Positions 9,646 through 18,170 of a stretch of 35,006 nt of DNA are shown piece after piece. The position numbers and the translations under genes are program-made. Position 1 is the stretch's first letter. Every line of letters begins with the position of its first letter. The notes under the pieces were generated by a model, which was given only the letters and a program-made list of their open reading frames with translations, was not told the origin of the DNA and ran no database searches. Source of the stretch: a virus (lineage: Duplodnaviria; Heunggongvirae; Uroviricota; Caudoviricetes); IMG/VR virus record IMGVR_UViG_2778261448_000009, positions 1 to 35,006 of that record. One strand, written 5' to 3'.

Positions 9646-11658
9646 ATGCTTAAATTTCGCCGCGATCTTAACGGTTACGGTGGAGTTATTAACGAAGGGC
9701 ATAACGATCAATACGAGTTTGAAATTGCTTTCTCAAGTACACAGCCTTATCAGCGCCAATTTTGGGATGAGCAAAATCAAGAAATGGTGGTATTAGATGA
9801 AATTCTGGTACATACACCGGAAGCGGTTGATCTGTCTCGTCTGAATAATAACGCTCCGTTGCTGTTCAATCATAATTTCGATAATCATATTGGTGTCGTT
9901 TGTAACGCTCGAATCGATGCGGATAACGTAGGTCGTGCTCTGGTTAGATTCTCTAAGCATGGCACTTTGGCTAATGATATTCGCAATAAAGTCATTGAAG
10001 GTACGATGGAAAAAATTTCTGTCGGTTATGACATTAAAGAATATCACATCGACTACACCAAAGGACAACTGATTGTTACTAAGTGGGCACCCTATGAACT
10101 CTCATTTGTCACCGTTCCCGCAGACGATACGGTCGGTTTAAATCGCTCTCTAAATACTATCACAGTTAATTTGGAGGCTAAACGCGATATGACTAAAGAA
10201 CAAATTGAAGAAATCAAAGAAGAACAAGAATCCGCTCAGGTTGAAGAAACTCCGGTAGAAGAAAATAAAGAACCGGAAGTTGAAGAAACTCAAGAGCGCC
10301 AAGTTGAAGAGAATAAAGAAGATGAAAATCTCGAAGACGGAAAAGACGCTAAACATCCTGAAAGTGTTGATGATGATAGTTCAACTGTTCGGGAAACAGA
10401 AGAAGTAAAAGAAGAACGTGAAGCTGCTCCGGTTGAAGAAGAAAAAATCGAGGAAGTGGCTGAACGTTCCGAAGAAGACGAATTAGAAATTCGCGAAATT
10501 GCACGCGAGTTAAATATTAACGAAGACGATGAAGAATTTAAACGCGCATTGGCAAATAAAGAAATTACGCCGGAAGCATTCCGCACTAAGGCACTAAATA
10601 AAATCGCTACTGCTCAACGTAACAACGAACAACAAATTAAGGACTCTAAAATGGAAAAAACTTTTGACCTGAACAACGTAATTCGCTCTCTGGTAGATGG
10701 TGCTGCTCTGGGCGCTCATGAAGCTGAATATTCCGCTATGGCTGCTGGTGCTGCAATGCAGCGTGGTCGTGCTGCTCGCGGTGGCTCTGTATTCGTTCCG
10801 GCTGCTGCTATGCGTGCTGCTTCTGCTGGTAACACCAAAGCCGACCTGACCGCTATCACTGACGAAAAACTGATGACTGAATCCTACATCGAAATGCTGA
10901 TGCCGGAATCTGTTCTGGGTCGTCTGGGTGTGACTGTTTACAGTGGCTTGAACTCCCCGACCGCTATTCCAAAAATGACTAAATCCAGCGTTGACGCTTT
11001 CGGCTTCGTTGATGAAAACGGTGCTGCACCGGAAAGCAAAGCTGAATTTGCGAACGTGAAACTGTCTCCGAAAACTTTTGCTGGTGGCAACCCGATCAGC
11101 CGTCAGTCGCTGAAAACCGTTCCGGGCATCGCTACCCTGATCACTGATCACATTAACAAAGCTGTTCGCATCAAACTGGAACAACTGATTCTGTCTGATA
11201 AAGCTAACGACCGTGGTCCGGCTGGTCTGGTTAAGCAACTGGTAGACGCTAGCCGCGTTACCAAGAAAGCTGCTTTCTCTTACAAAGACTTCCTGAAAGA
11301 AATTGCAGCACTGACCGACGCTGGCGTTCCTGCTCAGGCGATCAAGTTTGCGATGAGCGGTGCAACTGCTTCTGAACTGGAATCTACCCTGAAAGATAAC
11401 GGCGTTTCCGGTTATATCATCGAAAACGGCAAACTGGCTGGTTACGAAGTAGTTACTTCTGGCGTTATCCCGGCAGACCACATCGTTCTGGGTGACTTCT
11501 CCGGTATTACTATCGGTGAGTGGGGAGGTCTGGAACTCGACATGGATCTAACTACATATAGGGATCGTGGTGCGGTAGTGCCTCGTATCTTTGTAGATTT
11601 GGACTACGTTGTAGCACAGCCGGAAGCTCTGAAAGTTCTTCACATCTCCGCTGAATGA
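9646..11658 (+). CDS. prohead protease (HK97 gp4-like) - acidic scaffold - major capsid protein, single 670-aa ORF
   Basis: N-terminal LLFNHNFDNHIG, ISVGY and YELSFVTVPA resemble HK97 protease motifs ALFNHD, SFAF and FDVSPVTYPA as I recall them. Residues about 185-300 are E-rich and repetitive. The C-terminal 330 aa have capsid-like composition. TGA stop. Confidence 0.7.
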   Translation: MLKFRRDLNGYGGVINEGHNDQYEFEIAFSSTQPYQRQFWDEQNQEMVVLDEILVHTPEAVDLSRLNNNAPLLFNHNFDNHIGVVCNARIDADNVGRALVRFSKHGTLANDIRNKVIEGTMEKISVGYDIKEYHIDYTKGQLIVTKWAPYELSFVTVPADDTVGLNRSLNTITVNLEAKRDMTKEQIEEIKEEQESAQVEETPVEENKEPEVEETQERQVEENKEDENLEDGKDAKHPESVDDDSSTVRETEEVKEEREAAPVEEEKIEEVAERSEEDELEIREIARELNINEDDEEFKRALANKEITPEAFRTKALNKIATAQRNNEQQIKDSKMEKTFDLNNVIRSLVDGAALGAHEAEYSAMAAGAAMQRGRAARGGSVFVPAAAMRAASAGNTKADLTAITDEKLMTESYIEMLMPESVLGRLGVTVYSGLNSPTAIPKMTKSSVDAFGFVDENGAAPESKAEFANVKLSPKTFAGGNPISRQSLKTVPGIATLITDHINKAVRIKLEQLILSDKANDRGPAGLVKQLVDASRVTKKAAFSYKDFLKEIAALTDAGVPAQAIKFAMSGATASELESTLKDNGVSGYIIENGKLAGYEVVTSGVIPADHIVLGDFSGITIGEWGGLELDMDLTTYRDRGAVVPRIFVDLDYVVAQPEALKVLHISAE

Positions 11659-11745
11659 AATAACGAAGAATTGCCGGAAGAAATTCCGGTAGTTACGGCG
11701 AAAGCCACAGCTAAAAAGGTGGGACGTCCACCGAAAGCAAAATAA
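11659..11745 (+). other. in-frame 28-codon extension after the capsid TGA stop (candidate readthrough product NNEELPEEIPVVTAKATAKKVGRPPKAK)
   Basis: No in-frame stop until TAA at 11743-11745; conserved with the extension after the tail-tube gene, including synonymous codon differences. Confidence 0.5.
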
Positions 11746-11750
11746 TAATT

Positions 11751-11777
11751 AGCCCTGCCTAACGGTGGGGCTTTTTT
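11751..11777 (+). terminator. rho-independent terminator
   Basis: AGCCCTGCC-TAAC-GGTGGGGCT then TTTTTT; near-identical to the terminator at 17621. Confidence 0.75.
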
Positions 11778-11807
11778 GTATGTAAATACTCCATAAAGGG
11801 GGTAACT

Positions 11808-12098
11808 ATGTTCAAATTATCAGAATCACAATTATCAAGAATGTTTAAGAGTGCTCCTGTATTTGTGGTGGAAGGTGGTAAATCAATTCGTGCTTATCAT
11901 GAAATTACTACTACCGACGAATCAGGTGTAATGACAGAAACCGAATTTCTATTCTGTCGTGAGGGAGACTTAAAGCAAGGTGATATTGTCACAGTAGAAA
12001 ACCAGCGTTTCAAAGTTCAATACGTTAAGCGCAATGGTGACAATACTTGTGATTGCTTTATCACTTTAGCAGGGGGTACACATGCTCGCTACCGTTAA
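11808..12098 (+). CDS. hypothetical head-tail joining protein, 96 aa (lambda FII position)
   Basis: RBS AAGGGGGTAACT before the ATG; assignment by synteny only. Confidence 0.4.
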   Translation: MFKLSESQLSRMFKSAPVFVVEGGKSIRAYHEITTTDESGVMTETEFLFCREGDLKQGDIVTVENQRFKVQYVKRNGDNTCDCFITLAGGTHARYR

Positions 12099-12504
12099 TA
12101 ATATGCCGAGACTGAAAATCAAACGCGCCTTGCAAGATATTATCGAACAAGATTTAGGTCTGGCTTTAAACGTAGAACAAACTCAGCAAGGCTTTAGTGA
12201 TGACGTGGTTTGTTGGATTACTGGCATGAATGAAACTTATACGCGTGTTCGTGGTGGTAATGCAATGCAAGCTGAATGCGTTATCGAAATGCAATTATAT
12301 TCTCAGATTCATGAAACCAAAATTCATGAGGGTATTTGCCAGATAATCCAGATTCAGCCGGATAACCCACGTTTTAAAGATTTGGGCTTCTCAATTTCAG
12401 ATATCACTCCAGTAGCTTCTAATACCGATTATGACGATGATTCTAGTGATGGGGGTATCGTTGGGACACTTAGCCTTAAATTTTCTTATCTAGCGCGTTT
12501 TTAA
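12082..12504 (+). CDS. hypothetical head-tail or tail-completion protein, 140 aa (lambda Z/U position)
   Basis: Overlaps the upstream gene by 17 nt; AGGGGG before the ATG; assignment by synteny only. Confidence 0.4.
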   Translation: MLATVNNMPRLKIKRALQDIIEQDLGLALNVEQTQQGFSDDVVCWITGMNETYTRVRGGNAMQAECVIEMQLYSQIHETKIHEGICQIIQIQPDNPRFKDLGFSISDITPVASNTDYDDDSSDGGIVGTLSLKFSYLARF

Positions 12505-12513
12505 GGGGTAATA

Positions 12514-13347
12514 ATGAATATTACACAAGATAACTTAGACATTTTCACGGGGTCACATGTTGTCGTTTCCGTGTCTGATATGGTTGATAACCAGCCGGAC
12601 TTCTTCGATCCCAGCTTTAGCCCGATTGATAACGTGGCATCATTCCCGACGATCACCGAATCCACCGAGATAGAAACTCTTGAGGAATATGATCATGATG
12701 CTACTGGTAAACTTGCCGGATACCGCAAATTAGAACCGACTACGCTTGTTTTAAACCGTGTTCTTGACGATGAACATCAAGCAATGTTGATGAAAGCGGT
12801 AGAGGATAAAACACCTTTACGCTTCCGTATGTTCTATGTTGTGAACTCTGGCTATAGTGCTGCTAACACTGGTTACTATGTCATCTATGACGCTTATGTC
12901 ACATCACACAAAACCCGTGGTAGTGATAACAAAGCTGTAACACTGGAATTTAAACTTGAACCAGATGGCGGGATTTTGGATCGCGGTATTGCAACCGAGG
13001 GTCGTCTGCTCCGTCAGGGCGATATGGGCGTTGGTGCAGGAATTAGCCCGTTCACTGGTCCTACCGATAGCGAAGTATTAGCGGGTAACAGATTTGTAAC
13101 TTACAAGGGAACTGCTAGCGGTAATCCATACTCAGCTGACACATCATTAATTCACCTTCAAGCTAATGAGCATGGCGCATGGCAATTAACCTGTAATACT
13201 TCTGGCGCACCGCGTTTACGTGTCCGAAATATTCAGGAAAACGGTCGTTCTGAATGGATCAAGGTATATTCCACCAATGAGAAACCGACACCTAGCGAAA
13301 TTGGCGCAGTGGCTAAGACTGACCGGATCGATTTCGGCGAATACTAA
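12514..13347 (+). CDS. major-tail-protein (gpV-like) paralog with an extra C-terminal domain, 277 aa
   Basis: N-terminal DIFTG motif shared with the 157-aa gene at 17022; DDEHQAMLMKAVEDKTPLRFRMF resembles lambda gpV [23 protein letters not shown] as I recall it; C-terminal EKPTPSEIGAVAK recurs in the fibre. Confidence 0.5.
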   Translation: MNITQDNLDIFTGSHVVVSVSDMVDNQPDFFDPSFSPIDNVASFPTITESTEIETLEEYDHDATGKLAGYRKLEPTTLVLNRVLDDEHQAMLMKAVEDKTPLRFRMFYVVNSGYSAANTGYYVIYDAYVTSHKTRGSDNKAVTLEFKLEPDGGILDRGIATEGRLLRQGDMGVGAGISPFTGPTDSEVLAGNRFVTYKGTASGNPYSADTSLIHLQANEHGAWQLTCNTSGAPRLRVRNIQENGRSEWIKVYSTNEKPTPSEIGAVAKTDRIDFGEY

Positions 13348-13379
13348 GGATTCTCCTACCTAAATAAAACATGAACGTT

Positions 13380-13410
13380 GGGAGGTTAACGCCTCCCTTA
13401 TTCCTGTTTT
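13380..13410 (+). terminator. terminator-like hairpin
   Basis: GGGAGG-TTAACG-CCTCCC followed by a U-rich tract. Confidence 0.5.
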
Positions 13411-13428
13411 ATAGTGAGGTGATTCTAG

Positions 13429-16400
13429 ATGCAATCAATCCAATTTAAACGCACACAGACGGCTGGTAAAAAGCCGACGCCGGAACAATTATCACAGGGT
13501 GAAATCGCCTTACAGTTGGCGGATCATGTGATTTACACCAAAGACAAAAATAATAACGTAGTCCAAATTAGTGTTTCTCCAGAAAAACACGCTGAACTGA
13601 ATACGAAAGTAGACACCAACAAGGTCAATACAGATAAAGTCATTTCAGCAAATAAAACCGAAGCCGCTAATAATCTGGCTAGTGCTAAAGCTGAACTGAA
13701 TCAGACTATCACTTCTACCCGTGATACTCTCAATGCTTCAATCACTGCTGGCGATACCGCAGCCAACAAACGAATTGATGCTTTGACTACCACAGTAGGT
13801 AACAATAAAACCGAAGCGGCTAACGCTCTGGCGGCTGCTAAGACTGAACTGAATCAGACTATTACTTCAACCCGCGATACTATCAACGCGACAATTAACA
13901 AGAACAAGACAGATATTAATGCGCGAGTTGATCAGACGAATACCAACGTTACCAACTTAACGAATACTGTCGCAGCAAATAAATCAGCAATAGAAAAGAC
14001 GGTAGCGGATAATAAGAAAGATGCGGACACGAAGATCACCAATCTTACTAGTACGGTCTCTGCGAATAAGACGGCCATTGAAAGAACTGTTGCAAATAAC
14101 AAGGCCAGTGCCGATGCCGCAATTGCCGCAGCTAATCAGCGAATTGATTCGATTGAAGGTAGTGCCGATGCTGCTTACATCAAGAAGAATACCAACACTT
14201 ACCATCACGGCTATCTGTTAACCAAAACAGCTAACTATTTGGAAGACCAGACAGCGAGAGATCTTAACTACTTTGGTGCTTTCCGTACCAATGGTCAAGA
14301 TGGACTCATGGATCTAACTCTTAACGTTCCTCACTCTGCCGGCAAAGCGCACGGTCGCGGATTTACTTTCCGTTATGCGTCTGGTGGATCTCGTGTTGAA
14401 ACCTATGGTTTTGATAGAGAAGGACAGAAGAACTTTAGCTATAAGATGTATCACGAAGGTGATAAGCCGACTCCTGGCGAGATTGGTGCATACACCAAAG
14501 CCGAAGTTGATAAGATGTTTGTTAAAAACGTCGTTATGTCTGTTCCCAATTCTAGCGAAAACGTATCTGCATATTTCAAATTGGCAACCGCAACAATTCC
14601 ACAAAACGGGCGTAGTGTGTTTTTCCGTATTCATGGTGGTAATGGTTACAACGTTACGGCATATGACCAAGTTGATGTAGTAGAAATTCTTCTCCGTAGT
14701 GGTAACGATAGACCTAAAGGTCTTAACGTAATTGCATACCGTAGAAATACAAACAAAGATTTTGAGGTATTTGCTGTCAATACTTCCGGTGATAACTATG
14801 ATATCTACGTGAAATATCAGCGTTATACCGATAACGTTATTGTCGAATATGGGAAATCTGTTTATGTAAGTTTGACGGTTTATGATACGCCGGAAGCCAC
14901 GTTAATTAAACCTTCCGTTGGTGTTATCGGTGGTCGCAACGTAACTCTTTTTAACACAGAAAATAAACGTGGTGTGTTGAGTTTTGACGATAACACACAA
15001 AATAGTTATGATATTGTTCACTTGAGTAATGATAGGGGTACTGGTCGGAAATATATTCGTAAATTCCGTAGCAACTATAACGAAATGATCTGGCATGAGA
15101 CGGTTCAAGGTTCTACTTATCGACTCGCCACGGGTAGTACAGATTCTCAGGAGATTCTATCCGTTGAATCTAGTAGCTCTATTGCTGGGACTCATAAAGG
15201 TAATATTCTTTCTGGTCGAATGATGTTGGGTGGCGGTAGTAATGTTATTACCTTGCGGCGTCCTGCTGGTCAATCCAACCATATTGCGTTTCAAGATAAT
15301 CGGACTGGAGATATTACCCGTCAAGGGTGGATCGGTTATGGTAATGCTGATACTAACGTTTTTGAATGGTATAGTGATGTAGGTGGTACTTCTATTCGTC
15401 ACCACATAGACGGACAGATCGAATTTCAGACAGGTAACACAAAACGAGTTTATACTAACGCTCAATTCATCTCAATGAATAGCGACGCCTACCGCATGAT
15501 CTACGGTAATTATGGTGCATTCTGGCGTAATGACGGCAATAAAGTTTATCTTCTTTCTACTGCCGAAAATGATAAATTGGGCGGATGGAATGGAAACAGA
15601 CCGTTCATTTACGATTTGACTAACGGTAAAGTTACTTTAGGCGGTGATGGTAACGAAGGTGCATTAGTTCTTGAAAGAGATAGCCGTGCTGCCCGTTTTA
15701 GCAACAATGTATTCTTAGAAAAAGGACTGCTTACTTTCTCTGCTGGTGGAAATCAGTCGATGGATTCTTTTACGATTAACCATTGGGGGAATAGTAATGC
15801 CAATCGATATAACGTTTTGCAATTCCAGGACACTAGCGGAACTCACTTTACTACAGAACGTAACGGTACTGGTGGCTTACTTGCTCATTTCCGAGGGGAT
15901 TTAACTACCGAAGGAAAATTAACGTGGGGCAAAAATACAGCTACTTCTAGCTTTAATATCCGTGCGTGGGGTGCTGATGCTCGTAAACAAGTATTCGAAT
16001 GTGCGGACGAAAGCGGTTGGCACTGGTACACACAACGACCGGGCGGTCCGGGTACTGAATTAATCGAGTTTGCCATCAACGGTACTGTTAAACCTAAAGC
16101 AATTCACACTGGCGGTAATATCACGCTTAACGGTGCTGATATTGAGTTTCGTCGCAGTGGCAATAAGCATTTGTGGTTTAGAGATCCAAATGGCTTAGAA
16201 TTGGGTCTGTTGTACTGCGATGATGCTGGCGTTATGCGTATGCGCGGTGAGAAACAAACCGAAGTCTGGAAATTCGGCGGTAAGATGATTCACCTTGAAA
16301 CGGGCACTGTATCCGGTGGCGGTAATGGTCTTATTCGTGGTAGCGTTGCTGGTGGTAGTTGGGCTAGCTGGCGTGATCGTGCTTCTGGTATTCAGGTCGA

Positions 16401-16965
16401 TTGTCAACAATCAACCGATTCCGCTCATAACGTATGGAAAGCAACCCATCAAGGTAAATATCATATCGCAGCAATGGGTGTACATGTTCCTAGCGGTACT
16501 ATCGGTAACGCTACAGTTAAACTTCATGTTCATGACGCTGGTTTTGACTTTAACGCTGCTGGTGACTTTACCGCAGGTCGTAACGGTTCGTTTAACGATG
16601 TTTACATTCGCTCTGACTCCCGTTTGAAGATTAACAAGGAAGAATTACAGGACGGTGCATTAGAGAAAGTAAACTCCCTGAAAGTATACTCTTACGATAA
16701 AGTTAAATCTCTTTCCGATGACACAGTGATTAAACGCGAAGTAGGTATTATTGCTCAGGATCTGGAAAAAGTATTACCGGAAGCAGTAGGTATTCAATCC
16801 ACCGAAGATCCAGAACATCCAGAAGCAATCAAGACTATTTCTAACTCTGCTGTCAATGCTTTAATCATCAAAGCAATGCAGGAAATGACCGCTAAGTTTG
16901 ATGCTATGGCTAAAGAACTTGCCGAAACTAAAGCTGAATTAGCCGAACTGAAAGCAACTAAATAA
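13429..16965 (+). CDS. side tail fibre, 1178 aa, with C-terminal intramolecular chaperone (peptidase S74-like) domain
   Basis: N-terminus MQSIQFKRTQTAGKKPTPEQLSQGEIALQLADHVIY; tandem about 50-aa repeats (NKTEAAN-LA-AK-ELNQTITSTRDT) at nt about 13650-13900; C-terminal SDSRLKINKEELQDG...VGIIAQDLEKVLPEAV followed by a coiled coil, as in self-cleaving fibre chaperone domains. Confidence 0.75.
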   Translation: MQSIQFKRTQTAGKKPTPEQLSQGEIALQLADHVIYTKDKNNNVVQISVSPEKHAELNTKVDTNKVNTDKVISANKTEAANNLASAKAELNQTITSTRDTLNASITAGDTAANKRIDALTTTVGNNKTEAANALAAAKTELNQTITSTRDTINATINKNKTDINARVDQTNTNVTNLTNTVAANKSAIEKTVADNKKDADTKITNLTSTVSANKTAIERTVANNKASADAAIAAANQRIDSIEGSADAAYIKKNTNTYHHGYLLTKTANYLEDQTARDLNYFGAFRTNGQDGLMDLTLNVPHSAGKAHGRGFTFRYASGGSRVETYGFDREGQKNFSYKMYHEGDKPTPGEIGAYTKAEVDKMFVKNVVMSVPNSSENVSAYFKLATATIPQNGRSVFFRIHGGNGYNVTAYDQVDVVEILLRSGNDRPKGLNVIAYRRNTNKDFEVFAVNTSGDNYDIYVKYQRYTDNVIVEYGKSVYVSLTVYDTPEATLIKPSVGVIGGRNVTLFNTENKRGVLSFDDNTQNSYDIVHLSNDRGTGRKYIRKFRSNYNEMIWHETVQGSTYRLATGSTDSQEILSVESSSSIAGTHKGNILSGRMMLGGGSNVITLRRPAGQSNHIAFQDNRTGDITRQGWIGYGNADTNVFEWYSDVGGTSIRHHIDGQIEFQTGNTKRVYTNAQFISMNSDAYRMIYGNYGAFWRNDGNKVYLLSTAENDKLGGWNGNRPFIYDLTNGKVTLGGDGNEGALVLERDSRAARFSNNVFLEKGLLTFSAGGNQSMDSFTINHWGNSNANRYNVLQFQDTSGTHFTTERNGTGGLLAHFRGDLTTEGKLTWGKNTATSSFNIRAWGADARKQVFECADESGWHWYTQRPGGPGTELIEFAINGTVKPKAIHTGGNITLNGADIEFRRSGNKHLWFRDPNGLELGLLYCDDAGVMRMRGEKQTEVWKFGGKMIHLETGTVSGGGNGLIRGSVAGGSWASWRDRASGIQVDCQQSTDSAHNVWKATHQGKYHIAAMGVHVPSGTIGNATVKLHVHDAGFDFNAAGDFTAGRNGSFNDVYIRSDSRLKINKEELQDGALEKVNSLKVYSYDKVKSLSDDTVIKREVGIIAQDLEKVLPEAVGIQSTEDPEHPEAIKTISNSAVNALIIKAMQEMTAKFDAMAKELAETKAELAELKATK

Positions 16966-16972
16966 TAAAAGT

Positions 16973-16991
16973 CGGGGGACTAGTTCCCCCG
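16973..16991 (+). terminator. hairpin after the fibre gene, weak terminator
   Basis: CGGGGGA-CTAGT-TCCCCCG; the downstream U-run is poor. Confidence 0.4.
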
Positions 16992-17021
16992 TTATAACAA
17001 ATTTAATTAAGGGGTAATTAT

Positions 17022-17495
17022 ATGTCTCAACAATTCAAAGATATTTTTACTGGTGGTTTGGTAAGTCTGTTCTATCACGCTGATACCACTAACACCGATC
17101 TTGCTGATGAAGCATACGAAGAAATTAAAGAGTGTGCTGGTTTTCCTGAAACTGGTATCGAGCGCGGTACTGTAGAAGTTAAATCCTTCTCTTCTCAGTA
17201 TAACCGTAAACTGGTAGGGAAGCTGAACGTTCCTGATCTGACTCTGACCGTTAACTACATCCCAGGCGATGCGGTACATGAAAAACTGATCAAAGCTGCC
17301 GAAGACGGTACTCGTATTCAGATTAAAGTAGAATATTACGTTGACGCAGCAAAACAGACTGGTATTCGCACCGCTTTCAACGGCTTCATTTCTAAAGTTG
17401 CTATGAACGGTGGCGATGAAGAAGTTGTAACCAAAGAGTTTACCTTTGCTGTTGATGGTGCTCCGCTGAAACAGCAAATCTTCACTGCCGGATGA
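17022..17495 (+). CDS. major tail tube protein, gpV N-domain-like, 157 aa
   Basis: DLTLTVNYIPGD, EDGTRIQIKVEY, FNGFISKVA and TKEFTFAV parallel lambda gpV [32 protein letters not shown] and TRTVKVTNV as I recall them; RBS AAGGGGTAATT; strong terminator downstream; TGA stop. Confidence 0.65.
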   Translation: MSQQFKDIFTGGLVSLFYHADTTNTDLADEAYEEIKECAGFPETGIERGTVEVKSFSSQYNRKLVGKLNVPDLTLTVNYIPGDAVHEKLIKAAEDGTRIQIKVEYYVDAAKQTGIRTAFNGFISKVAMNGGDEEVVTKEFTFAVDGAPLKQQIFTAG

Positions 17496-17615
17496 ACTAA
17501 CGAAGAACTTCCCGAACCGGAACCACAGCCGGAACATGAAGCGGTGGTGATTCCAGAAGTAGAAGAAGTTACGGCGAAAGCCACAGCTAAACGAAGCCGC
17601 AAGGCTAAAGATTAA
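17496..17615 (+). other. in-frame 39-codon extension after the tail-tube TGA stop (candidate readthrough product TNEELPEPEPQPEHEAVVIPEVEEVTAKATAKRSRKAKD)
   Basis: Open to TAA at 17613-17615; shares NEELPE and VTAKATAK with the capsid extension; identical 24-nt core GTTACGGCGAAAGCCACAGCTAAA. Confidence 0.5.
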
Positions 17616-17620
17616 TTATA

Positions 17621-17648
17621 AGCCCTGCCTTAATGGTGGGGCTTTTTT
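17621..17648 (+). terminator. rho-independent terminator
   Basis: AGCCCTGCC-TTAAT-GGTGGGGCT then TTTTTT. Confidence 0.75.
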
Positions 17649-17663
17649 ATTGGAGTAATCAAA

Positions 17664-18170
17664 ATGGCGAATGTCGTTAATAAGCCTGGCTGGGTCGGGT
17701 CATCTGCTGTTTCTGTAACTGGTCAACGATGGATGAGCGCAGCAATGAACGCATTAAAGGTTAGTCGCCCAGCTAACATGAGTGCGATGTGTGGTCGTGG
17801 TATGGATACGGTTGTAGCTACTGCTGCGTGGACTACTTCATTGGGTAATAACTGGGGTGTAACTGCTTCAAACTATCCAGTAACTGACATGCGCGGTAAA
17901 GGATCTATGGAGAACCCCGAAAACGTGGGCGTAGGGCGTCTGATTGGCGTTATCGTTGGTCAATTCAATGGTGGTACTCCTACTATGGCTGTATATCTCC
18001 AGAACGGTAGAGCGGGGAATATAACCGTTAATTTGGGTGGTGCTGCTGTCACTGTTCCTTATAACAGTATGCAAAGTGGTTTTCATTACTATTGGTTAAG
18101 CAATCCTCCGGCTGCTTTCCTAACAAATATTAAGAAGGCTGGCACTAAGCAGACTTTGAAAATCTCTTAA
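17664..18170 (+). CDS. hypothetical structural protein, 168 aa
   Basis: RBS GGAG before the ATG; sits between the tube and chaperone genes; Gly/Thr/Val-rich, beta-rich composition; no family recognised. Confidence 0.4.
   Translation: MANVVNKPGWVGSSAVSVTGQRWMSAAMNALKVSRPANMSAMCGRGMDTVVATAAWTTSLGNNWGVTASNYPVTDMRGKGSMENPENVGVGRLIGVIVGQFNGGTPTMAVYLQNGRAGNITVNLGGAAVTVPYNSMQSGFHYYWLSNPPAAFLTNIKKAGTKQTLKIS

Follow-up and report, generated by a model that had tools for sequence, protein, structure and literature searches.

A tail-tube paralogue as the probable anchor of a T-even-type side fibre in an Escherichia coli siphovirus prophage

The window analysed here is a stretch of viral DNA of 35,006 nt (IMG/VR record IMGVR_UViG_2778261448_000009, positions 1 to 35,006), which encodes a lambda-like/HK97-like siphovirus prophage of Escherichia coli with a non-contractile tail. 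Our subject is a group of three tail genes within it, in which the genes for two tail-tube-like proteins of 277 and 157 aa (the long and the short paralogue, respectively) flank that for a side fibre of 1178 aa. We found the long paralogue to be a copy of the tail-tube protein that arose by an ancient duplication and has since specialised, and its sequence reads as that of a chimera assembled from a tube domain, a Gly-rich linker, one fibre knob and the C-terminal connector of the T-even fibre protein gp36. We consider it likely that this protein is the anchor of the side fibre, to which it would be coupled by a joint of the gp36/gp37 type. The picture that emerges as most likely is that of a borrowed T4-type fibre plugged onto a non-contractile tail through the 277-aa protein. 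The three open reading frames (ORFs) lie where an earlier note on this DNA had placed them, and are listed below together with their parts.

12514-13347, + strand: long paralogue, 277 aa
12514..12999, + strand: long paralogue aa 1-162, tail-tube-fold domain, proposed ring-forming anchor
13000..13281, + strand: long paralogue aa 163-256, Gly-rich linker (RxGDxGxGxG) and fibre-type knob module
13282..13308, + strand: long paralogue aa 257-265, KPTPSEIGA, a generic module-boundary motif of T-even-type fibres
13309..13347, + strand: C-terminal connector tail VAKTDRIDFGEY with stop codon, gp36-type end
13429-16965, + strand: fibre, 1178 aa
13429..13581, + strand: fibre aa 1-51, gp37-type N-terminal attachment region (IQFKRT...GEIALQL)
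13582..14211, + strand: fibre aa 52-261, coiled-coil repeat insert of 210 aa, a gap in the alignment with Phi1 gp37
14212..16965, + strand: fibre aa 262-1178, homologue of Krischvirus gp37 (PF21446, PF13884; phrog_1699, E=1e-141)
14461-14490, + strand: DKPTPGEIGA in the fibre
16612-16788, + strand: C-terminal S74 intramolecular chaperone of the fibre, the body of which also carries a Gp34_trimer domain
17022..17495, + strand: short paralogue, 157 aa, major tail tube protein

Tube domain and gp36-type end of the 277-aa protein

The paralogy of the two small proteins, which the earlier note had proposed in part from a DIFTG motif that does lie close to the N-terminus of both (MNITQDNLDIFTGS and MSQQFKDIFTGG), was borne out by pairwise alignment, in which BLASTP returned 48/163 identities (29 %, E=6e-15, well above chance). 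Profile-profile comparison (hhalign) likewise aligned residues 6-161 of the long paralogue with residues 4-155 of the tube protein (99.5 % probability, E=2.8e-23). Both proteins match phrog_158, labelled 'major tail protein' (E=1.8e-08 for the long and E=1.9e-21 for the short paralogue), and the short paralogue reached the Pfam family PF16460 (lambda-like tail tube protein, TTP) at cut-off. None of the Pfam TTP families was reached by the long paralogue itself, and Pfam, NCBIfam and PDB sequence searches returned no matches for this protein, for the 140-aa protein encoded directly upstream of it or for the longer relatives of the long paralogue. In structure prediction with AlphaFold2 (AF2), residues 12-162 of the long paralogue adopted a tube fold at a predicted local distance difference test score (pLDDT) of 76-95, and the matches found in BFVD were tube proteins. 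The outcome that the earlier note had named as refuting, a predicted fold unlike that of a tube, thus did not arise. By fold (the beta-sandwich with flanking helix of gpV-N, Hcp and TTPs), as well as by homology to a bona fide tube protein, the long paralogue thus belongs to the tail tube superfamily. It is also acidic (net charge -14), which is weak evidence but compatible with a channel-lining ring.

The short paralogue is the major tube protein, and the long paralogue is not. In all of the ~120 related loci that we gathered from IMG/VR, it is the counterpart of the 157-aa gene that holds the slot directly upstream of the chaperone genes and the tape measure gene. This gene is kept in relatives without a long paralogue, and its homologues in distant relatives carry the C-terminal Ig-like extension typical of major tubes.

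The C-terminal part of the long paralogue is of a different kind. The earlier note gave the end of the protein as ...AVAK; the chain in fact runs on with TDRIDFGEY, which is the informative part, and its true end reads ...AVAKTDRIDFGEY. The gp36 of the Krischvirus Phi1, annotated as 'hinge connector of long tail fiber distal connector', terminates ...NKPTPADVGAVPLNAVIDFGTF, such that IDFGEY in the window protein matches ..IDFGTF in Phi1, whilst T4 gp36 terminates ...DSVQDFGYY. Both D273 and G275 of this connector tail are invariant in the family, as are G169, D170, G172, G174 and G176 of the linker. Two classes of ending occur in E. coli, ..AKTDRIDFGEY and ..SIHDRIDFGEY. By BLASTP, residues 180-277 align with residues 396-496 of Phi1 gp36 (its very end) at 31 % identity (E=2e-5), and with a family profile (hhalign) residues 183-276 align with 378-496 of the 496 residues of gp36 (E=1.9e-6); hence the linker/knob module falls on the last module of Phi1 gp36, and the alignment reaches its last residue, with the shared ending xDFGx[Y/F]. 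Longer relatives, in which the long paralogue has 446-485 aa, gave E=1e-17 against gp36, as well as 7e-20 and 2e-20 against phrog_16472 (the Krischvirus gp36 family; profile positions 387-496 of 496). A tblastn search with the gp36-like module led to gene 36 of RB49-type phages. PF03903, which covers the N-terminal and central parts of gp36 (the region joined to gp35 at the knee), found no match in the window protein or in its relatives of 446-698 aa. As the tube domain replaces the N-terminal region of gp36, and PF03903 is absent, the protein is a chimera rather than a gp36 orthologue. A match of the gp36-like module to Vibrio phage Saratov-12 was set aside as irrelevant, being to a podovirus fibre gene without a tube domain.

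The gene that follows would supply the other half of such a joint. At its N-terminus the fibre aligns with residues 4-54 of Phi1 gp37 (39 % identity, E=5e-10), and T4 gp37 starts MATLKQIQFKRS...GELAINL. Residues 262-1175 are 78 % identical to Phi1 gp37 over 914 aa, S74 chaperone included, and the fibre DNA is ~80 % identical to gene 37 of RB49, Phi1 and ECD7. With an N-terminal attachment region, a shaft and a tip bearing a C-terminal chaperone, the fibre is accordingly a gp37 of the Krischvirus type. The coiled-coil insert, which separates the gp37-type N-terminus from the body homologous to gp37, is built of units of the form NKTEAANxLAxAKxELNQTITSTRDT... and has a weak apolipoprotein-like helical match.

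The two proteins also have in common the KPTPxEIGA motif to which the earlier note had drawn attention (EKPTPSEIGA at aa 256-265 of the long paralogue, DKPTPGEIGA at aa 345-354 of the fibre). It falls within a 42-aa local alignment of the two (E=3e-4), and a loose version of it occurred in no other protein of the 17 window proteins tested. Motifs of this type are, however, present in four copies in Phi1 gp36 and in one copy in Phi1 gp37, a recurrence that makes them module-boundary motifs, neither a docking signature nor specific to this pair.

Anchor-fibre pairing and the age of the duplication

Across the related loci, the two halves of the putative joint occur together: in 39/39 of those where the long paralogue has a gp36-type ending (xD[F/L/A]Gx[Y/F/E]), the next gene has a gp37-type N-terminus. 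Gene order in the window likewise places a gene 37 homologue directly after the gp36-type end, and binding of the two may be supposed by analogy with T4, where trimeric gp36 binds the N-terminal region of gp37 in the first step of distal half-fibre assembly (PMC3004832). In ~50 loci, the long paralogue is itself a one-piece fibre of 700-1446 aa that ends in a coiled coil or an S74 domain, with the tube gene 27-74 nt downstream and no second fibre gene. We also searched 1.84 billion representatives (clusters at 50 % identity) for the size of the family; among the best 149 matches, which were those considered, 112 were tube-headed proteins of 342-1563 aa, 12 of them with a gp36-type ending, and in these 112 fibre-length representatives the linker/knob module is kept together with the tube domain. 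In most relatives, the tube-like domain thus leads a one-piece fibre of 400-1500 aa whose gene lies just upstream of that for the tube, an example being the L101 type at 1349 aa, and the arrangement in the window is the split version of a common 'tube-headed fibre'. A small group of loci (L056-L060, L190 and L191) departs from both forms, having a tube-headed gene of only 415 aa followed by an ORF of ~555 aa that starts mid-fibre; a fibre gene that has been split or frameshifted could account for this, as could another kind of joint.

For 30 close E. coli loci we compared how the parts of this system vary. The C-terminal module of the long paralogue and the fibre N-terminus vary together in identity (rho 0.89), as do this module and the fibre body (rho 0.82), whereas the tube-like domain varies independently of its own C-terminal module (rho -0.06). 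This difference places a boundary of recombination where the anchor meets the adaptor module. As linkage contributes to the signal, we regard it as supportive rather than decisive.

The arrangement itself is old. A common backbone (terminase, portal, capsid, small genes in some cases, terminator, long paralogue, fibre where present, tube, chaperones, tape measure and tip) runs through the loci, and the order terminator, long paralogue, (fibre), tube is kept in ~120 of them, down to ~25-35 % protein identity. In a tree of 74 distinct long-paralogue tube domains and 76 tubes, which drew on ~95 related loci, the long paralogues form one pure clade, and the nearest neighbour of every sequence in this set belongs to its own class. 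Long and short copies of the same locus are 20-32 % identical (mean 26 %), and copies from different loci about equally so (mean 25 %). Because the clades are separate and identity within a locus equals that between loci, the arrival of the fibre did not duplicate the tube gene. The earlier note had offered two interpretations, and it is here that one of them falls, namely a cassette insertion of the fibre that duplicated the tube gene. On this reading, a recent insertion in or beside the tube gene would have left the long copy as a decaying or neofunctionalising by-product. The fibre is indeed flanked by two tube-like genes, and the ~80 % DNA identity of its body to Krischvirus gene 37 marks that part as fairly recently acquired. 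Nevertheless, the low identity of the copies in every locus, the single clade and the order conserved over so many loci all speak against it, as do the occurrence of the tube-like domain as the fibre's own N-terminus in most of these loci, the conservation of the long copy (52 invariant columns among sequences down to 41 % identity) and the span of the recent exchange, which takes in the fibre and the C-terminal module and excludes the tube-like domain. The insertion reading is as such already contradicted, and we give it hardly any credence.

The proposed mount and its alternatives

The other interpretation, that the long paralogue is a fibre-docking variant of the tube subunit, was supported, and is sharpened by the gp36-type C-terminus and the matching gp37-type N-terminus of the fibre. 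On this model the tube-like domains would assemble as a ring that is stacked in line with the tube and substitutes for one of its ordinary rings; from this ring the C-terminal parts would leave at the point where decoration domains usually protrude. The C-terminal 115 aa are probably a trimeric domain, and the gp36-like modules would trimerise as gp36 does, so that the six subunits of one ring would give two trimers and two fibres, and two rings four. Each trimer would capture the N-terminal region of one gp37-like fibre trimer, in the manner of T4 gp36, and the outcome would be side fibres for first, reversible adsorption. As to where the ring might sit, the tip-proximal end of the tube is slightly favoured by analogy with T5 p140; a location at the head end, next to the terminator, would fit the gene order terminator, anchor, tube equally well, and occupancy of more than one place is a further candidate. 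Co-variation of the anchor with the terminator, the tube or the Dit-like protein favoured none of these positions, and neither did tape measure length, which is 733 aa in relatives with and without the anchor.

Several observations weigh against this model. The location of the protein in the virion, its ring formation and its stoichiometry are inferred from sequence. A six-fold ring bearing trimeric fibres requires a 2 x 3 symmetry breaking that is not known for a tube ring, and lambda and T5 handle this same problem with 12-mer collars outside the tube. For residues 163-277, AF2 gave a pLDDT of ~30 on a shallow alignment, which bears on both the fold and the oligomeric state of the C-terminal part. 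The gp36 similarity of the window protein on its own is modest (pairwise E=2e-5; phrog_16472 E=0.036; no PF03903), and the match leans partly on intermediate sequences. Furthermore, the co-variation of adjacent genes is partly explained by linkage alone, and none was seen between the tube-like domain and the tube on which it would stack (rho -0.18).

Two other roles for the long paralogue have to be set beside that of an anchor. It might be a decorated minor tube subunit, co-polymerised at low frequency along the whole tube like SPP1 gp17.1* or Ig-decorated tubes, with its knob acting as a weak adhesin alone and the big fibre attached elsewhere, for example at the tip complex. This would agree with a full tube domain whose loop lengths are as in the tube protein, with an acidity like that of a lumen-forming subunit, with a Shine-Dalgarno sequence that equals the one of the tube gene in strength and with the Ig-like C-terminal domains that leave the tubes of distant relatives at the same exit point. 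The extreme C-terminus is nevertheless a gp36 connector tail that co-occurs without exception with a gp37-type N-terminus in the next gene, and most relatives fuse the domain to a fibre of 700-1400 aa, which if scattered would line the tail with many long fibres; we therefore regard a minor subunit as unlikely. Alternatively, the protein might form a specialised structural ring that docks nothing, a tube initiator or terminator ring like T4 gp54/gp48 or gp3, its fibre-like C-terminus being a short whisker unrelated to the 1178-aa fibre. A role of this sort would leave the gp36/gp37 pairing unexplained. It also sits poorly with four IMG/VR contigs of the same backbone (L176-L179) that have no long paralogue and no tube-headed fibre: there the tube gene follows 33 nt after the terminator (e.g. 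L176:7443-8381), and the tape measure, at 733 aa, equals that of anchor-bearing relatives. Its absence from them makes the anchor an accessory and not an essential ring, and a purely structural ring seems to us distinctly unlikely.

Amongst known systems, the T-even distal half-fibre (gp36-gp37-gp38, as in the Krischviruses RB49 and Phi1) offers the closest counterpart to the distal part of the proposed mount: the gp36 C-terminal module with xDFGx[Y/F], the gp37 N-terminus with IQFKR...GE[LI]A, the order 36 then 37, the fibre body with S74 domain and a gp38-like gene nearby are all found again in the window. The window differs from it in that a tube-fold domain stands in for the N-terminal part of gp36 (the part in contact with gp35 at the knee), such that the half-fibre would sit directly on a siphovirus tail; moreover, no gp34 or gp35 is present here, the fibre has its extra coiled-coil insert, and the gp38-like gene lies beyond the tube gene.

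For the proximal part, the nearest likeness is T5, where the product of a tube-gene duplicate, p140, makes up the ring to which a separate 12-mer collar fastens the L-shaped fibres (PMC10038345). That protein consists of two tandem tube domains, forms a (pseudo-hexameric) trimer, bears no fibre, relies on the separate Ig-like p132 collar and is encoded in the baseplate cluster, whereas the long paralogue has a single tube domain of ~160 aa that is joined covalently to a fibre or connector, and is encoded between terminator and tube; it is thus not of the p140 type. The authors of the T5 study considered p140 and p132 to be confined to T5-like phages (PMC10038345). Among the genes examined here we recognised none for a separate collar protein, although no search was aimed at p132 homologues. 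The side tail fibre (Stf) of Ur-lambda brings its own anchor, in that its N-terminal domains encircle the gpV/gpM junction as a 12-mer collar, from which flexible linkers lead into four trimers (PMC12617516). There, as proposed here, an N-terminal domain anchors the fibre, with three anchor domains per trimeric fibre and the symmetry mismatch with the six-fold tail solved (PMC12617516). However, residues 1-94 of Stf are a small six-stranded sheet plus helix in a collar outside the tube, whilst the anchor in the window is an entire tube-fold domain with homology to the tube subunit, of which a ring of six in line with the tube would be expected. The Ig-like domain of lambda gpV, SPP1 gp17.1* and the Ig domain of T5 pb6 likewise combine a tube domain with an outward C-terminal extension, but in these it is the major subunit or a frameshift variant that carries a small decoration, and not a separate, ancient paralogue that carries a fibre or connector. 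Finally, gp48, gp54 and gp3, the adaptor rings of the contractile T4 tail, are single rings of tube-fold paralogues at tube ends, but these are essential for assembly and bear no fibres, whereas the long paralogue is dispensable in some relatives. The 'two major tail proteins' of JBD30 were dropped as a precedent for paralogues, as the wording refers to neighbouring subunits.

The ingredients are already known singly: rings of tube-fold paralogues, fibre collars, and T-even fibre modules carried by lambdoid prophages. We did not find a fibre anchored by a tube-protein paralogue in 50,697 isolated-phage records (apart from the record DCP80, described below), and literature searches for a fibre with a tube-like N-terminal domain found none, an absence that is no proof of novelty. 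Atomic detail on how flexible tails hold their side fibres is available for few siphophages, in particular T5 with its relative DT57C and Ur-lambda, both of which use 12-mer collars outside the tube. The present locus points to a third solution, one that would be far commoner in sequence space, with 112 or more protein clusters at 50 % identity, and common in uncultured phages. Tube-headed anchors occur in many metagenomic viruses as well as in prophages of E. coli, Shigella, Salmonella, Providencia, Edwardsiella and Proteus. We hold it quite possible, but not yet probable, that an in-line ring of tube paralogues, whose six C-terminal arms are braided into trimeric fibres or connectors, is a widespread, undescribed side-fibre mount of non-contractile tails. 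If so, the anchor would be part of the DNA conduit itself and not a collar around it, and in the boldest version, with the ring beside the terminator, a siphovirus would have made long 'neck fibres' from a T4-type distal half-fibre. The graft is cleanly modular, in that the gp36C/gp37/gp38 unit of lytic T-even-type phages is reused on a temperate siphovirus, and the recombination boundary falls exactly where the anchor domain gives way to the adaptor module. This is relevant to the prediction of prophage host range, to annotation and to engineering, for which a tube-domain anchor combined with a gp36/gp37 joint would offer a natural plug-and-socket through which receptor-binding fibres could be exchanged. 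In our check of existing annotations, which covered the window-type form of the anchor, these proteins are called 'hypothetical protein' in source names and Prokaryotic Genome Annotation Pipeline (PGAP) annotations, whilst the matching phrog_158 carries its 'major tail protein' label.

Locus context and neighbouring elements

The region from 11700 to 13500 of the window is present in 54/5,426 complete E. coli genomes at 60-95 % identity, on the chromosome every time (in strain E275, for example, at 94.8 % identity; NZ_CP035865, 2189429-2191229), and homologues of the 277-aa protein also occur in Shigella, Salmonella, Providencia, Edwardsiella and Proteus. A scan of genome contigs with the long-paralogue alignment, in a collection with one genome per species, returned no relative. 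The only one of the isolated-phage records to contain this protein is an odd one, 'Escherichia phage DCP80' (L001; PQ671644.1, 1-18560), filed as a 141-kb Gaprivervirus (T4-like). The left end of this record is an 18-kb siphovirus morphogenesis module of the present family, with a tube-headed anchor of 699 aa and a fibre of 745 aa, and the record is probably a chimeric assembly.

On the head side, the window encodes a gpA-type terminase, a lambda-family portal and a fusion of S78 protease and HK97 capsid; the capsid gene (9646-11658) specifies a 670-aa product in which the S78 prohead protease is joined by a highly acidic linker of ~200 aa to the HK97-type capsid domain. There follow an FII-like 96-aa protein and the 140-aa protein and, in the tail module, the long paralogue, the fibre, the short paralogue, the gp38-like adhesin, a pair of chaperone genes, a tape measure of 784 aa, three small proteins of the tip and a J-like central fibre that bears the lambda gpJ receptor-binding domain. 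The tail module is permuted in an unusual manner in one sub-lineage (L160-L173), where the order is terminator, anchor (340-400 aa), fibre, tube, p191-like gene and J-like gene, and both chaperone genes lie several kb further downstream. Four further elements adjoin the genes discussed above.

12082..12504, + strand: tail terminator, 140 aa, directly upstream of the long paralogue
13380..13397, + strand: terminator-like hairpin between the long paralogue and the fibre gene (7-bp stem, 5 GC pairs, weak T tail)
17496..17644, + strand: in-frame 39-codon extension after the TGA of the tube gene (to TAA at 17613-17615) and strong terminator (17620-17644)
17664..18170, + strand: gp38-like tail-fibre adhesin, 168 aa (PF21721 Gp38_N, E=1.8e-15; phrog_1121, E=6e-33)

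The long paralogue occupies the position of the lambda U gene and was on that account considered as tail terminator. It is the 140-aa neighbour, however, that has the gpU/p142-type fold and is the actual terminator, which excludes this role for the long paralogue, whose tube fold is not the alpha/beta fold with which gpU-type proteins cap the tube.

The gp38-like adhesin probably belongs to the fibre module, even though the tube gene intervenes; in distant relatives (L041-L045, L167 and L169) the gp38-like gene directly follows the fibre. As in Krischvirus gp37, an S74 chaperone is already part of the window fibre itself, and the annotation of Phi1 shows no gp38 adhesin beside gene 37.

The earlier note had assigned a readthrough extension and a strong terminator to the short paralogue only. 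Both are real, but the long paralogue is also followed by a terminator-like hairpin, a weaker one, and the same cassette as behind the tube gene (17493-17644) recurs behind the capsid gene (11656-11772). Capsid and short tube genes both end in TGA, followed by 28 or 39 in-frame sense codons that specify a similar basic tail (...VTAKATAK(K/R)...KAK) and then by TAA. The two cassettes have nearly identical strong terminators (AGCCCTGCC..GGTGGGGCTTTTTT) and an exact 24-nt block in common, GTTACGGCGAAAGCCACAGCTAAA. They may represent programmed readthrough, by which a minor fraction of the capsid and tube proteins, the two most abundant in the virion, would be extended at the C-terminus; alternatively, a 3' regulatory cassette may have been duplicated.

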